Part shown: positions 1 to 12,852 of the stretch, in pieces | Layout: every line of letters begins with the position of its first letter | How positions within the stretch are numbered: the stretch's first letter is position 1 | From: a virus | Lineage: Duplodnaviria; Heunggongvirae; Uroviricota; Caudoviricetes | IMG/VR virus record: IMGVR_UViG_2778261499_000009 | Span: 1-14,225 of that record | Strand: one strand, 5' to 3' | Length of the DNA: 14,225 nt | Notes under the pieces: generated by a model | Database searches by the model: none | The model's input: only the letters and a program-made list of their open reading frames with translations | Told to the model about the DNA's origin: nothing | Program-made: the position numbers and the translations under genes

Positions 1-1248
1 ATGGCACTGAATATTCCATTCAGAAATGCGTACTATCGTTTTGCATCCAGTTACTCATTTCTCTTTTTTATTTCCTGGTCGCTGTGGTGGTCGTTATACG
101 CTATTTGGCTGAAAGGACATCTAGGATTAACAGGGACGGAATTAGGTACACTTTATTCGGTCAACCAGTTTACCAGCATTCTATTTATGATGTTCTACGG
201 CATCGTTCAGGATAAACTCGGTCTGAAGAAACCGCTCATCTGGTGTATGAGTTTCATTCTGGTCTTGACCGGACCGTTTATGATTTACGTTTATGAACCG
301 TTACTGCAAAGCAATTTTTCTGTAGGTCTAATTCTGGGGGCGCTCTTTTTTGGCCTGGGGTATCTGGCGGGATGCGGTTTGCTTGACAGCTTCACCGAAA
401 AAATGGCGCGAAATTTTCATTTCGAATATGGAACAGCGCGCGCCTGGGGATCTTTTGGCTATGCTATTGGCGCGTTCTTTGCTGGTATATTTTTTAGTAT
501 CAGTCCCCATATCAACTTCTGGTTGGTCTCGCTATTTGGCGCTGTATTTATGATGATCAACATGCGTTTTAAAGATAAGGATCACCAGTGCATAGCGGCG
601 GATGCGGGAGGGGTAAAAAAAGAGGATTTTATCGCAGTTTTCAAGGATCGAAACTTCTGGGTTTTTGTCATATTTATTGTGGGGACGTGGTCTTTCTATA
701 ACATTTTTGATCAACAACTCTTTCCTGTCTTTTATGCAGGTTTATTCGAATCACACGATGTAGGAACGCGCCTGTATGGTTATCTCAACTCATTCCAGGT
801 GGTACTCGAAGCGCTGTGCATGGCGATTATTCCTTTCTTTGTGAATCGGGTAGGGCCAAAAAATGCATTACTTATCGGTGTTGTGATTATGGCGTTGCGT
901 ATCCTTTCCTGCGTGCTGTTCGTTAACCCCTGGATTATTTCATTAGTGAAGCTGTTACATGCCATTGAGGTTCCACTTTGTGTCATATCCGTCTTCAAAT
1001 ACAGCGTGGCAAACTTTGATAAGCGCCTGTCGTCGACGATCTTTCTGATTGGTTTTCAAATTGCCAGTTCGCTTGGGATTGTGCTGCTTTCAACGCCGAC
1101 TGGGATACTCTTTGACCACGCAGGCTACCAGACAGTTTTCTTCGCAATTTCGGGTATTGTCTGCCTGATGTTGCTATTTGGCATTTTCTTCCTGAGTAAA
1201 AAACGCGAGCAAATAGTTATGGAAACGCCTGTACCTTCAGCAATATAG
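1..1248 (+). CDS. MFS transporter, LacY-like (oligosaccharide:H+ symporter family)
   Basis: 415-aa ORF, polytopic hydrophobic protein. Alignable by eye to E. coli LacY (e.g. DKLGLKKPLIW vs LacY DKLGLRKYLLW; NFHFEYGTARAWG vs NFEFGRARMFG; GPKNALLIG vs GGKNALLLAG). Not LacY itself. ATG at position 1, so the true start could lie upstream of the window. Confidence 0.8.
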   Translation: MALNIPFRNAYYRFASSYSFLFFISWSLWWSLYAIWLKGHLGLTGTELGTLYSVNQFTSILFMMFYGIVQDKLGLKKPLIWCMSFILVLTGPFMIYVYEPLLQSNFSVGLILGALFFGLGYLAGCGLLDSFTEKMARNFHFEYGTARAWGSFGYAIGAFFAGIFFSISPHINFWLVSLFGAVFMMINMRFKDKDHQCIAADAGGVKKEDFIAVFKDRNFWVFVIFIVGTWSFYNIFDQQLFPVFYAGLFESHDVGTRLYGYLNSFQVVLEALCMAIIPFFVNRVGPKNALLIGVVIMALRILSCVLFVNPWIISLVKLLHAIEVPLCVISVFKYSVANFDKRLSSTIFLIGFQIASSLGIVLLSTPTGILFDHAGYQTVFFAISGIVCLMLLFGIFFLSKKREQIVMETPVPSAI

Positions 1249-1327
1249 ACGTAAACTTTTTCCGGTTGTTGTCGATATCTCCATATCCCTCAACCGGAAA
1301 ATAATAATACAAAAATGCTTACCCCTG

Positions 1328-1597
1328 CTAATAATCACCTAATCCAAACGCCTCATTCATGTTCTGGTACAGTCGCTCAAATGTACTCCGGATACGCGGT
1401 TCGCTGATTTCCAGGACATTGTCGTCATTCAGCGACGTGTCCCGTGTATCACGGGCCTGCGAATTCATCAAGGAATGCATTGCAGAGTGAAGTATCGAGT
1501 CACGCCATATTTCGCTATCAGGATTCTGTATGATGGTTACATCGCCCGGCCAGGGCTGTTTAGTCATCAGCGCTTTCTGACAGTGCTGAGATTTCAA
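1328..1597 (-). CDS. hypothetical protein (weak call; possibly a remnant)
   Basis: 89-aa ORF between the transporter and the xis-like gene; no recognisable motifs. It sits where an integrase would be expected but is far too short and lacks tyrosine-recombinase motifs. Confidence 0.25.
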   Translation of the reverse strand: MKSQHCQKALMTKQPWPGDVTIIQNPDSEIWRDSILHSAMHSLMNSQARDTRDTSLNDDNVLEISEPRIRSTFERLYQNMNEAFGLGDY

Positions 1598-1776
1598 CCT
1601 GTTGCAGTAAAAATGAGTAGATATAGGGCAAGTGTGCTGCCAAACCCATCTTTTACGGGGTGAAGGTAGATTTGGTTTGAAGGGTATCTGGTGTCCCCTG
1701 CAGACATCTACTTCAAGCGGCAGGGGATTGATTGGAATGGTGTTTTTTAGATGTGAAAAATATTTTACCCGCTATT

Positions 1777-1977
1777 TTACCCATTGGCGCGGCTTAAGAG
1801 CTTATTTTTGAATTCACAATGGTCACGATATAACCATCTTGCTCGCCCGTGGATAACTTTGGCTTTTGGCAGGTCGCCGGACTTAATCCGGTCATAGATG
1901 AAGGTTTTACCGAAGCCAGTATCGGCCATGATGAATTTCAAATCAACCAGTGAATCAGGCTGTAGTTCGTGTTGCAT
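1777..1977 (-). CDS. AlpA/excisionase-like small DNA-binding protein (putative Xis)
   Basis: 66 aa; segment LKFIMADTGFGKTFIYDRIKSGDLPKAKVIHGRARW matches the AlpA/Xis-type winged-helix pattern (recalled family consensus). Confidence 0.55.
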   Translation of the reverse strand: MQHELQPDSLVDLKFIMADTGFGKTFIYDRIKSGDLPKAKVIHGRARWLYRDHCEFKNKLLSRANG

Positions 1978-2020
1978 GAGTGCTATCTCCGAATAGGGAA
2001 TCGAACCTGCAAATCAGGTA

Positions 2021-2043
2021 ATAAAAAACCGCCATCAGGCGGC
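2021..2043 (-). terminator. intrinsic terminator (minus strand) downstream of the 2086..2397 gene
   Basis: Minus-strand reading: stem CCGCC / loop TGAT / stem GGCGG followed by TTTTTTATT (plus strand shows AAAAAACCGCCATCAGGCGG). Confidence 0.5.
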
Positions 2044-2085
2044 TTGGTGTTCTTTCAGTTCTTCAATTCGAATATTGGTTACGTC

Positions 2086-2397
2086 TTATTCGATGCGCAC
2101 TCCTGGTATTTCGCCTTTTGATATTGCGAAGTCATAAATTTGCGCAGCACTATACCCATCTCGCATCCATGAATCTAATGCGCGAATAGCCTCGCTACGC
2201 TTTTTATCTTCTCTCTCATTTTTGATATCAACGAGGACATCAACGCAATTAAGGCAAATGTGGATTTTGTCCTTACATTCGATCATGGCGGCTTTACCAT
2301 GATTTCCGCCGCACAGTGAGCATAAATCTTCAGGGTCTGGCTGGTATTTCTGTAACGTTAGATGGTTGAATGTTGAACAGACCATAATCATCTCCAT
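2086..2397 (-). CDS. hypothetical Cys-rich small protein
   Basis: 103-aa ORF with CxxC-type motifs (CSLCGG ... CLNC). A hairpin lies 9 nt upstream of the annotated ATG, so the true start may be an internal Met (MIMVCS / MVCS). Confidence 0.4.
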   Translation of the reverse strand: MEMIMVCSTFNHLTLQKYQPDPEDLCSLCGGNHGKAAMIECKDKIHICLNCVDVLVDIKNEREDKKRSEAIRALDSWMRDGYSAAQIYDFAISKGEIPGVRIE

Positions 2398-2558
2398 AAA
2401 ACAAAACTCGCCGTAGCGAGTTCAGATAAAAGAAATCCCCGCGAGTGCGAGGATTGTTAGTTGCGCTCTGCTGCTGCCTTAGCCATTACCATATCCACCC
2501 AATTTCACCAGACATGATTCTCGCAATCACTATTATCACCAAAGTGATAATCACAACT

Positions 2559-3813: not shown

Positions 3814-4113
3814 TCACATCACCCTGAATCCGTTGCATTTACGTAAGAAATCGCAGATATAGCCCTTCATTTTTTCATGCCAATCTCGATCATTCCCATT
3901 GCACCAACCATCAGGTGGAGTCCAGTTTTCTATCAGAGCAGCCATTTTCTTTGCTTTCGCCGGAGTAGCTGTTGCGGTATCGCAGTAATGACGAGTTTCA
4001 ACCAACGCATCCATACCATCGATATCAAGTACGCAAAACCATGTGTGATTCGGCATTCCAACAGATGGTATTTGTTGCCCACGTCGACGTTTATCAATAA
4101 GACATACAGTCAT
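3814..4113 (-). CDS. hypothetical protein
   Basis: 99-aa ORF; its start overlaps the stop of the upstream gene (ATGA-type coupling at 4110-4113); several Cys/Trp residues. Confidence 0.45.
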   Translation of the reverse strand: MTVCLIDKRRRGQQIPSVGMPNHTWFCVLDIDGMDALVETRHYCDTATATPAKAKKMAALIENWTPPDGWCNGNDRDWHEKMKGYICDFLRKCNGFRVM

Positions 4114-7813: not shown

Positions 7814-8711
<898 letters not shown>

Positions 8712-9192: not shown

Positions 9193-10050
9193 TTATCGTT
9201 TATTTCTTTGATGTTTCTTTGCAGACTCAGCTTGAGTGTTTCCATACCTGCGTTTACCGCTATTGTTTTTTCCCCTAGGCTTGCCTTTTTTTCGATCTTC
9301 CCACCAGTCAGGTGCCGGGTCTGGCTCAACATGTAAAGCATCGGCAAGTCCTGATATCAAGCTGTATGACTGAACTCCATCAATGTGCTCTGACAGTGAT
9401 GGGGTAACATTCTGTCTTAGTGGATCAAGAATAAAATCAATACCTTTAATTCTGGCGTGTTTGGCGGCAGGCACAAAGTCTGAGTCCCCAGCAACAAGGA
9501 CAATTACATCAACAAGTTTTTCATAAGCTAAAGTCGTGATATCCATCCCTAGCTTGATATCAACTTGTTTTTGTTTGATGTCATAGTAAAAATCATCATT
9601 TGTCAGTTCATCCCATTTTTTCGTTCCTTTCATCAGAGCATCAAGGGAGAATGTAGTTAGTTGCCATCGCTTATTATCAACAAGATTCCCTAATCTTAAG
9701 GCTGTTTTTCGAGTTTTTCTTAACTCTTCATGCAGCTCCGTTCTCAGAATATATGATTTTTCGAGTTTGAAATTCTTGCGACCAGGCGTCTTATTGCCAG
9801 GCTCAGGAAGTGGAAGGCGTGTTTGAATGTCGAGTGGTGGACAGTCATAGAAGTAAATTCTATAAAGCTCAAGCGGTTCCCTACGTTCTTGTGATTGACG
9901 TTTTCCATTAAGATGGGAAAGAACCATTGACCATATTACTTTCATTATGCATTGCGCAGTCAGTTCATGCTCGGCGAAGTGTTTACGATGCGTAGCATGA
10001 ACACGCTGCATGAAAAAACCCGCATCAATTAAAATTGCTGCTTTCTTCAT
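9193..10050 (-). CDS. NYN/LabA-like (PIN-fold) nuclease-domain protein with Lys/Arg-rich C-terminal tail, in the rexAB position
   Basis: 285 aa; N-terminal MKKAAILIDAGFF and downstream VDVIVLVAGDSDFVPAAKHARIKGIDFI match recalled NYN/LabA hallmark motifs; tail RKKGKPRGKNNSGKRRYGNTQAESAKKHQRNKR is highly basic. Lies between cI and the timm-like terminator, where lambda carries rexA-rexB. No resemblance to RexA or RexB. Confidence 0.65.
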   Translation of the reverse strand: MKKAAILIDAGFFMQRVHATHRKHFAEHELTAQCIMKVIWSMVLSHLNGKRQSQERREPLELYRIYFYDCPPLDIQTRLPLPEPGNKTPGRKNFKLEKSYILRTELHEELRKTRKTALRLGNLVDNKRWQLTTFSLDALMKGTKKWDELTNDDFYYDIKQKQVDIKLGMDITTLAYEKLVDVIVLVAGDSDFVPAAKHARIKGIDFILDPLRQNVTPSLSEHIDGVQSYSLISGLADALHVEPDPAPDWWEDRKKGKPRGKNNSGKRRYGNTQAESAKKHQRNKR

Positions 10051-11904: not shown

Positions 11905-12852
11905 ATGAGCAATACAGCAAAAATCTACGATTTCAGCGCCGCACACGAGCGCAGGAGCAACAGGATGGAGAACCAGAAAACTGGTTACATTCCGTTGTAC
12001 CGGAGCATTCTGAAACAGTCATGGGCGAAAGATGTTTATCTTCGCACCCTGTGGGAAAACCTTCTCCTGAATGCCGCCAGAAAGCCATACAAAGCGAATT
12101 TCAAAGGTCATGAATGGCATCTGCAACCCGGTCAACTGGTTGTGACAGCAGCTGATTTAGGTCTTCAGTTATGCGACAGACATGGCAAGCCAGCAAGCCG
12201 TGATCAGGTTGAGCGGATGCTTCAGGTTTTTGTGAAAGAGGGGATGATCTCCATTGATGGAGAGAAGCAAAAAGGTCGTGTGATAACCATCACAAATTAC
12301 CATGAATATGCTCAAAAAATGGACAATTTACCCGCACATGAAGCCGCACAAACAACCGCACATGATGCAGCACATGACGAAGACAGTAATGGCGCGGCTT
12401 TCAGAGCACATGCCGCACATGAAAGCGCACATGAAGCCGCACAAACAACCGCACATCATGAACAAGAAGGTATTAACAAGAATATAAATAATACCCCCCT
12501 ACCCCCCAATGGGGGAGGCGATGGGCAGGTTAAACCTGAACGTCGCAAGGCAGAACGAATCGACTACGAATCCTTCCTGAACGCCTACAACACCGAAGTC
12601 GGTGACAGACTTCCACACGCTGTTGCGGTCAACGAGAAACGAAAACGCCGCCTGAAGAAAATCATCCCGCAACTGAAAACGCCAAACGTGGACGGTTTCA
12701 GAGCGTATGTCAGGGCGTTTGTGCATCAGGCCAAGCCGTTTTACTTCGGAGACAACGACACGGGCTGGACAGCTGATTTTGATTACCTGCTGAGGGAAGA
12801 TTCGTTAACTGGAGTACGGGAAGGGAAGTTTGCAGACAGGGGGATTGCATGA
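11905..12852 (+). CDS. phage replication initiator (O-like / P22 gene 18-like) containing the origin
   Basis: 315 aa; N-terminus [10 protein letters not shown] resembles lambda O MTNTAKILNF; position immediately before the helicase; a central low-complexity AHE/AHD-repeat linker is encoded by the iteron DNA; stop overlaps the helicase start (ATGA). Confidence 0.7.
12330..12520. repeat. ori-type iteron cluster + AT-rich tract + C5/G5 palindrome inside the initiator gene
   Basis: GCACATG-containing units recur at least six times; an exact 30-bp direct repeat CGCACATGAAGCCGCACAAACAACCGCACAT occurs at 12333-12362 and 12427-12456; followed by AT-rich GGTATTAACAAGAATATAAATAATAC and CCCCCCTACCCCCCAATGGGGGAGG. 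Confidence 0.65.

Follow-up and report, generated by a model that had tools for sequence, protein, structure and literature searches.

In the DNA analysed here, a stretch of 14,225 bases to which we refer as the window, we identify the interval 1249-2085 with high confidence as the place where the right end (attR) of a prophage in the tRNA-Arg gene argW meets the host chromosome. This prophage is P22-like (Sf6/HK620-type), about 40.7 kb long and essentially intact. The excisionase gene that stands alone at this junction is an ordinary arrangement, and the main finding is to this extent biology that is already known; the sole new element is a small and apparently undescribed detail, a conserved box in the leader of that gene. 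The original prediction was right to place an xis-like gene at 1777-1977, an 89-aa ORF and an MFS gene on the other strand, and it saw in the lack of an integrase beside xis either a decayed prophage end, with the integrase deleted and an att remnant left behind, or a hint that the attachment site and integrase lie elsewhere. That expectation of int after xis arose because the gene order of lambda was assumed, an order that is not valid for the KplE1/HK620/Sf6 module. The absence of an integrase beside xis does not point to decay here, and the answer on mobility changes with it.

The host junction and the attR core

The chromosome of APEC O2-211 matches all 14,225 bases of the window at 99.986%, with 2 mismatches and no gaps, and it is by this match that we assign the window to E. 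coli. From the host side up to the excisionase gene, the features are:

1-1248, plus strand: cscB, a sucrose/oligosaccharide MFS permease of 415 aa (Pfam LacY_symp, E=5e-193; RefSeq name cscB)
1249-1688, no strand: chromosomal flank 3' of argW in csc+ E. coli, from direct flank-argW junctions elsewhere
1328-1597, minus strand: truncated DUF4942 fragment, the 89-aa ORF (Pfam PF13708, E=2.6e-9)
1689-1703, minus strand: attR core CTGCAGGGGACACCA, equal to the 15 nt that end tRNA-Arg(CCU) argW, directly repeated at attL
1704-1800, minus strand: P arm of attR, with two GGGTAAAA repeats (1776-1783 and 1763-1770), running into the 3' end of torI

The cscB gene is chromosomal and lies outside the prophage. 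We read 1249-1688 as chromosomal flank as well, and not as prophage DNA, because argW adjoins the same sequence in unoccupied alleles. In two loci (L004 and L204) the sequence of 1249-1688 comes straight after the 3' end of argW, and comparison with uninterrupted alleles, which had been proposed as a check, has argW continuing directly into GATACCCTTCAAAC..., that is, into window position 1688 and leftwards. The contiguous junction of flank and argW occurs in 2,621 of 5,426 complete E. coli genomes. To the left of 1689, no homology was found in Sf6, HK620 or Kapi1.

The 89-aa ORF had been described as belonging to no recognisable family; it is in fact a truncated DUF4942 match. The match covers positions 5-62 only of the 190 in the PF13708 profile, and in another genome the same ORF carries the RefSeq remark "incomplete; missing C-terminus", which together argue that it is a fragment of a chromosomal DUF4942 pseudogene, unrelated to the prophage. 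It is probably the relic of an older element at argW. A Pfam search found no integrase-derived sequence between xis and the host junction, and 1249-1688 held the DUF4942 fragment only.

We assign 1689-1703 as the attR core, and 1704 to about 1800 as the P arm, because the match to the 3' end of argW, the homology breakpoints and the cores of Sf6 and KplE1 all agree. CTGCAGGGGACACCA has a single exact match in the window (1689-1703, minus strand), whereas 0 of 200 shuffles matched, and argW ends in the identical sequence at the attL of L005, the locus from which the argW sequence was taken. The homology of four free phages (Sf6, HK620, IME10 and Kapi1) starts exactly at 1689, and in records where cscB, flank and argW follow one another, homology to the window stops at 1703. 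The Sf6 annotation gives the same sequence, as a 16-mer, for its attP core, and the published core of KplE1 is CTGCAGGGGACACCAT (PMC2951348). It is this 15-nt argW 3' end that is the real att remnant, missed by the original prediction; the T-loop-like motif beside xis is not.

The P arm agrees with what is known of the module. Both of its GGGTAAAA repeats are of the IntS arm-type kind, and such sites contain TAAA (PMC2951348). The attR-IHF2 primer (CTCTTAAGCCGCGCCAATGG) of the published in-vitro attR maps to window 1781-1800, and the 135-bp attR fragment that it bounds suffices for in-vitro excision (PMC3509656). From the attR core to the torI stop there are 73 bp, exactly as in the attP of Sf6.

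The excisionase gene and the early-left region

On the phage side of the core the features are:

1777-1977, minus strand: torI, the recombination directionality factor (RDF, or excisionase) gene of the KplE1/HK620/Sf6 module, 66 aa
1987-1990, minus strand: Shine-Dalgarno (SD) GGAG of torI, from the sequence; kept as cGGAG across TorI-family leaders
2026-2045, minus strand: intrinsic terminator directly upstream of the torI leader, an 8-bp stem (5 G-C pairs) followed by a T-run
2086-2397, minus strand: homologue of Sf6 gene 19 and 933W L0063, from the Sf6 annotation; the first early-left gene outside the recombination module
about 1689 rightwards, no strand: P22-like/lambdoid prophage early region (Ead/Ea22-like, RecT, Kil, N, lambda-type cI, cro, cII, an O-like gene and a DnaB-like helicase)

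TorI is a winged-helix protein of 66 aa that is also an inhibitor of TorR. The product of 1777-1977 on the minus strand, to which RefSeq gives the name torI, is identical at 66 of 66 residues to PDB 1Z4H, "Tor inhibition protein", and 100% identical to the excisionases HkaC of HK620 and gp18 of Sf6. The earlier label "AlpA/excisionase-like" can thus be made more exact: on these identities the protein is TorI itself. Experiments have characterised TorI as the RDF of KplE1 (CPS-53), a prophage of E. coli K-12 (PMC2951348, PMC3509656). Pfam returned HTH_17 alone, at E=0.0079, below Pfam's cut-off, with no Phage_AlpA (PF05930) match at E<=0.1, and NCBIfam returned no match; the links of TorI to AlpA are that depositors of related phages cite COG3311 AlpA, and that AlpA-annotated proteins of Pseudomonas match it at 43% over 47 aa.

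Upstream of the leader, homology to Stx phages begins at window 2018, and the product of 2086-2397 has a weak match to a ClpX-type zinc finger. The terminator at 2026-2045 is the dominant hairpin in the RNA fold, and relatives carry a hairpin and T-run at the matching place, with different stem sequences. A consensus scan found no sigma-70 consensus between this terminator and torI. Taken together, the strong terminator and the result of that scan suggest that torI is probably reached by N-antiterminated early-left transcription, and the terminator would then end transcription of the upstream early-left genes and gate read-through into torI.

The integrase and the far prophage end

The integrase end lies outside the 14-kb window and was checked in the near-identical public genome of APEC O2-211. 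There the order is yfdC, argW (75 nt, complete), intS (385 aa) and tailspike, and the prophage spans 40,674 bp (40.7 kb) from core to core. The intS gene is intact; its product agrees with Sf6 Int at all but 3 of the 385 residues and carries the Arm-DNA-bind_3, Phage_int_M and Phage_integrase domains (arm-binding, central and catalytic), which makes it a P4-family tyrosine integrase with an arm-binding N-domain. When the attR-left part from the window and the attL-right part are set against the xis-attP-int region of Sf6, the alignment runs without a gap for 1,724 bp, and 96.8% of it is identical. Among the sequences of the attL arm, AGTTCGC, AGTCCGT, AGTTCGT, GGTTCGC and AGATCGT are published TorI sites; the arm also has GGGTAAAA/TTTACCC arm-type sequences, overlapped by a TTGACA/TAAAAA intS promoter. 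Between the two ends lie full sets of P22-like tail/injection, head, portal, terminase, lysis, nin and replication genes, of which the capsid gene is flagged as frameshifted.

In Sf6 int, the attP core and xis follow one another on one strand, and the same holds in the relatives examined; this order is reported for Sf6 and HK620 (Casjens 2004, Clark 2001). Thus of the suggestion that both the att site and the integrase lie elsewhere, the second part held, the integrase being at the opposite end, 40.7 kb away and next to argW, and the first did not, attR being at 1689-1703.

It is against this arrangement that a decayed end has to be weighed, in which the prophage would have become immobile through deletion of an integrase gene that, as in lambda, had separated xis from the host DNA. 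The gap between torI and cscB is indeed only 528 bp and contains no integrase, and the frameshift flag on the capsid gene of the near-identical prophage would fit a decaying element. However, the 440 bp at 1249-1688 are the normal flank of argW in thousands of genomes, the distance from the core to the torI stop has its Sf6 attP value, an intact intS is present at the opposite end, and the order xis-attP-int is documented for this module. On these grounds we take the deleted integrase to be refuted.

Splitting of the module and mobility of the prophage

On the reading that we prefer, an ordinary attR junction, the phage circle carries torI, the P arm, the 15-nt core, the P' arm and int in this order, and integration at the core splits the pair, leaving TorI here beside the displaced copy of the argW 3' end and IntS downstream of the reconstituted argW. 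The integrase is at the opposite end because attP sits between xis and int in this module. In KplE1, intS is the first gene and torI the last, and the module is common to HK620, Sf6, CUS-3 and the APEC-O1 and UTI89 prophages (PMC2951348, PMC3509656).

The two genes are also controlled apart. Low-level, constitutive synthesis of IntS is driven by a promoter within attL (Panis 2010, 2012), which both IntS and TorI repress (PMC2951348). Expression of TorI triggers excision; TorI binds GTTCG sites in attL and steers IntS to excision (Panis 2010, 2012). Transcription of int and of the RDF gene is uncoupled, the excision switch rests on RDF expression, and the torI promoter has been called "non-characterized" (PMC2951348). 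We suggest that in the intact phage antiterminated early-left transcription would pass the terminator at 2026-2045 and so reach torI.

Judged by sequence, nothing has been deleted: the recombination module, comprising torI, attR, attL and intS, looks complete and near-identical to those of the viable phages Sf6 and HK620, and because of this the prophage should be considered excision-competent. The near-identical genome has a frameshift flag on its capsid gene; for this reason virion production may be defective even if excision works, and particle production is uncertain. The point is of some general interest, as expectations of gene order that are drawn from lambda cause tRNA-integrated prophages of a very common class to be taken for degraded ones.

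A conserved box in the torI leader

The remaining feature of the interval is:

1997-2012, minus strand: T-loop-like leader box TTGCAGGTTCGATTCC, an exact 16-nt copy of the argW T-arm that contains GTTCG

The T-loop-like motif that had been reported at 1996-2007 of the minus strand is present, with its position and extent revised: GGTTCGATTCC occupies 1997-2007, and the match to argW is longer, 16 nt at 1997-2012. The statement that it does not form a proper tRNA arm was borne out. ARAGORN, which had been proposed as a check, was run on the window and found 0 tRNA genes; Rfam gave no tRNA at the box even at E<=10, its best match, STnc130, reaching 24 bits where the gathering score is 55; and the RNA fold has no T-stem around the loop. 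The box lies 293 bp from the attR core, on the phage side of torI and outside the 135-bp attR that is sufficient for in-vitro excision (PMC3509656), and it is also found in the free phage genomes of Sf6 and HK620.

TorI homologues were collected from phage records, GTDB species genomes and IMG/VR, with divergent homologues used as IMG/VR queries; before these divergent queries the IMG/VR scan had returned 100%-identical TorI loci only. GTTCGA lies at -60 to -10 upstream of 25 of the 48 distinct TorI-family proteins (36% to 100% identity), and its same-strand background elsewhere in these loci is 0.01 per 50 nt. Counted over distinct leaders, 63 of its 79 occurrences start at -29 relative to the ATG, with the others at -28, -26 and -35. 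The consensus of the box is cagGTTCGATTyCC, followed after a few bases by cGGAG, and its 9-nt core GGTTCGATT is invariant; the leader flanks cannot be aligned between distant lineages (phiEt88, the Salmonella phages Emek and g341c, and Edwardsiella, Serratia and Pantoea prophages). Some Erwinia-type leaders (L006 and L164, also L165/L169) have two tandem boxes, the second copies starting at -42. A second pentamer abuts the SD 12 nt downstream of the box in several lineages (GTTCG in L016 and L025, GTCCG in L024), and the window has a degenerate form of it, ATTCG, at 1990-1994, also 12 nt downstream. About half of TorI-family leaders have no box, among them L007, L008 and L134, whose P' arms carry GTTCG.

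It might be asked whether the motif is a chance resemblance to a T-loop, or a cryptic tRNA or pseudo-tRNA that marks a second att site. T-loop-like 11-mers are common in genomes, and no more than about 300 bp separate the motif from the true att core. Against this, the exact 16-nt match is essentially never reached by shuffles (2 of 200 window shuffles matched TTGCAGGTTCGATTCC even with two mismatches allowed), and the position is fixed in 25 of 48 distinct relatives over the low background given above; there is no tRNA by ARAGORN or Rfam and no T-stem in the fold; and the box occurs in free Sf6 and HK620 as well as at prophage junctions, and outside the minimal in-vitro attR. Both forms of this explanation are scarcely credible, and from its conservation we regard the leader box as real, neither a chance match nor an att site. 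By the 16-nt match, what it copies is the T-loop of argW, which would correspond to the B-arm side of attB.

As to what such a copy might do, we propose that the box, 29 nt upstream of the ATG, would act in cis, most likely as an operator through which TorI and/or IntS feed back on RDF expression. As a statement about TorI-family excisionase genes in general, namely that the box is an undescribed operator through which TorI and/or the integrase feed back on excisionase expression, the idea is tentative. Mutagenesis has defined TorI sites as GTTCG, GATCG or GTCCG (PMC2951348). The box contains the first of these pentamers, at a fixed position and with strong enrichment, and the second pentamer near the SD also speaks for TorI; against TorI as the binding protein, phiEt88 keeps the box though its arm repeats are GTAACC-like, and several phages with GTTCG arms have no box. 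A candidate role is that of a mimic of the core-type (B-arm) site of the integrase, given that the T-loop lies immediately left of the attB crossover region and that the C-arm of attP is also TTCGAT in most lineages. If the box is an operator, it would fill an acknowledged gap in the control of RDF expression, which is the excision switch of this module.

The box may instead be a fossil of tRNA-derived sequence, from a longer tRNA-like attP or a captured fragment of argW, handed down in a conserved 5' leader through descent and modular exchange without being recognised by any protein; this we regard as possible, if somewhat doubtful. In its favour, the match to argW is an exact 16 nt in E. coli lineages, the 16-mer and the core, overlapping by 1 nt, together make up the last 30 nt of argW, and the box carries the argW-specific T59 (GATT). 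Its absence from about half of the TorI family points the same way, as do the near-identical leaders of L009 and L017, present though the Xis is only 46% identical to TorI; such leaders on divergent Xis proteins suggest that the leader moves as a mosaic unit. A fossil would however not be expected to keep GGTTCGATT invariant and at a fixed distance from the ATG while the flanks become unalignable, down to 36% protein identity, nor to be duplicated in tandem in some lineages. In most lineages, moreover, a T-loop-like arm (TTCGAT) is already present in attP, directly beside the core and in the same register as attB (aaTTCGATgtaTGCAGGGG), and because of this the leader copy is not the missing half of a split attP. 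The tiling of 16-mer and core had suggested a split tRNA, with torI inserted into a longer tRNA-like attP, and this we rejected as the main reading, since the TTCGAT arm is contiguous with the core in most attP outside E. coli.

Several other readings of the box were tried and set aside. It is not an IntS arm-type site, since these are of the GGGTAAAA (TAAA) type. A sigma-70 promoter, annotated in Sf6 as a putative "pI", is not found at the box by the consensus scan, and GGAGAT is better read as an SD. A T-arm hairpin or covarying RNA structure is not conserved. The box is not a general feature of the AlpA family, as the vis leader of P4 has none. The proposal that it tracks the T-loop of the target tRNA fails for the int-proximal box of P4; as for the xis leader, every relative found targets an argW-type core. 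We also note that other argW-targeting P4-like integrase modules have (G)GTTCGAT between arm-type repeats just upstream of int. At the int-proximal position P4 itself has CTTCGATT, though its target leuX has TTCGAGT, and because of this mismatch the int-proximal box is not a simple copy of the target tRNA. A literature search that covered part of the key papers found no mention of the leader-box motif, and a search with the motif string gave unrelated eukaryotic tRNA constructs.

Comparison with known systems

The closest characterised system is KplE1 (CPS-53; Panis et al. 2007, 2010, 2012), with which the prophage shares an identical TorI, the core sequence, the GGGTAAAA repeats of the P arm, the placing of torI as last gene by attR and of intS as first gene by argW, and the torI leader with its T-loop-like box (L012, L015). 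KplE1 is however defective, a remnant of 10 kb that lies beside dsdC and has a repeat of 16 nt, whereas the prophage described here is a full-length, 40.7-kb P22-like element with lambda-type immunity next to the csc sucrose locus, with a repeat of 15 nt because the host flank starts with G and not with T.

The likeness to Sf6 extends over window 1689-2459 at 97.8% identity, with a collinear reconstructed attP and, as given above, three differing residues in Int. With the Lederbergvirus phages Sf6 and HK620 the prophage also shares the P22-like head, tail and DNA-injection gene set, and it differs from them in its mosaic early region, which has lambda-like cI and cro, a RecT-type recombinase and an NYN-domain gene; the APEC O2-211 copy has no oac gene between tailspike and int.

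The comparison with lambda is one of shared parts in a different order. Both systems use a heterobivalent tyrosine integrase, a small winged-helix RDF and arm-type sites, and IHF sites are reported in the literature for the KplE1-type module. In lambda, attP is outside the int-xis pair, which remains whole at attL; the two genes share a transcript from pL, and Xis binds the P arm (attR). In the module found here, by contrast, attP sits between int and xis, an autoregulated promoter in attL serves intS by itself, and attL is also where TorI binds (PMC2951348).

Finally, the module shares with P4, whose RDF Vis is of the AlpA family, a P4-family integrase with an arm-binding N-domain. Further points of likeness are the int leaders of P4 and of other P4-like integrases, which carry a (G/C)TTCGAT(T) box between arm-type repeats, and the repression of the P4 int promoter by Int as well as by the RDF (PMC7286903). 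P4 differs in that vis lies far from int, its leader is without the T-loop-like box and the target is leuX.

A T-loop-like box in excisionase leaders

Upstream of torI, the gene for the excisionase of the window's prophage, lies a short conserved motif:

1997-2012, minus strand: T-loop-like box, GGTTCGATTyCC

The same box precedes 25 of 48 distinct TorI-family excisionase genes at a fixed spacing from the start codon (about -29), and some lineages carry it in tandem copies in these leaders. It recurs in the related phage and genome loci L006, L009-L011, L016-L019, L021 and L024-L026, and in many IMG/VR loci. Within the box is GTTCG, the TorI recognition pentamer.

We also note that a (G/C)TTCGAT(T) box stands just 5' of the int start in other argW-targeting P4-like integrase modules, and in P4 itself:

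L014, L025, L035, L036, L042, L068 (compared loci): (G/C)TTCGAT(T) box upstream of int
L203 (P4), 3925-3965: (G/C)TTCGAT(T) box

This int-proximal box sits between flanking arm-type repeats, two direct and one inverted, which vary by module (GGGGCAT, GGTAT, GGGTAT, CGTATA) while the box is constant. Among the loci compared, IntS-type modules carry no such box at the int-proximal position.

A possible second integration site at argW

In many E. coli carrying the csc sucrose locus, argW is bordered on its 5' side by another phage, whose integrase is divergently oriented:

L004, 3445-4881, and L204, 3743-5182 (compared loci): phage abutting argW 5' side, divergent integrase

The start of argW reads GTCCCCTTAG in L004 versus GTCCTCTTAG in APEC O2-211, which suggests that the other end of argW serves as a second, independent integration site in the same tRNA gene.

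Capsid, replication and early-operon genes

The near-identical prophage of APEC O2-211 carries a flagged gene:

L005 (APEC O2-211), 23405-24659: P22-type major capsid gene, flagged frameshifted

The flag reflects either a real defect, in which case virion production would be blocked, or an assembly error.

Further features belong to the window:

12333-12367 and 12426-12460: pair of 35-bp direct repeats at 97% identity
2559-3209, minus strand: single 216-aa fusion ORF, dATP/dGTP pyrophosphohydrolase domain plus DUF551
7892-8395, plus strand: 167-aa ORF, opposite in strand to the leftward early operon enclosing it
9193-10050, minus strand: 285-aa NYN-domain ORF (Pfam E=6.8e-9)

Both repeats fall within the O-like replication initiator gene and are probably origin iterons, like those of lambdoid phages. 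In its annotation of APEC O2-211, RefSeq breaks the DNA of the fusion ORF into four fragments or pseudogenes, even though the sequence there is gap-free compared with the window. The 167-aa ORF, which overlaps the end of the N gene region and matches no Pfam or PADLOC family, may be a moron. The NYN-domain ORF, a possible moron or defence gene, is split into two fragments in the APEC O2-211 RefSeq annotation and has a weak PADLOC match to HEC-09 (E=2e-4). It is flanked by N on one side and a lambda-type cI on the other, a position occupied in lambda by rexAB.
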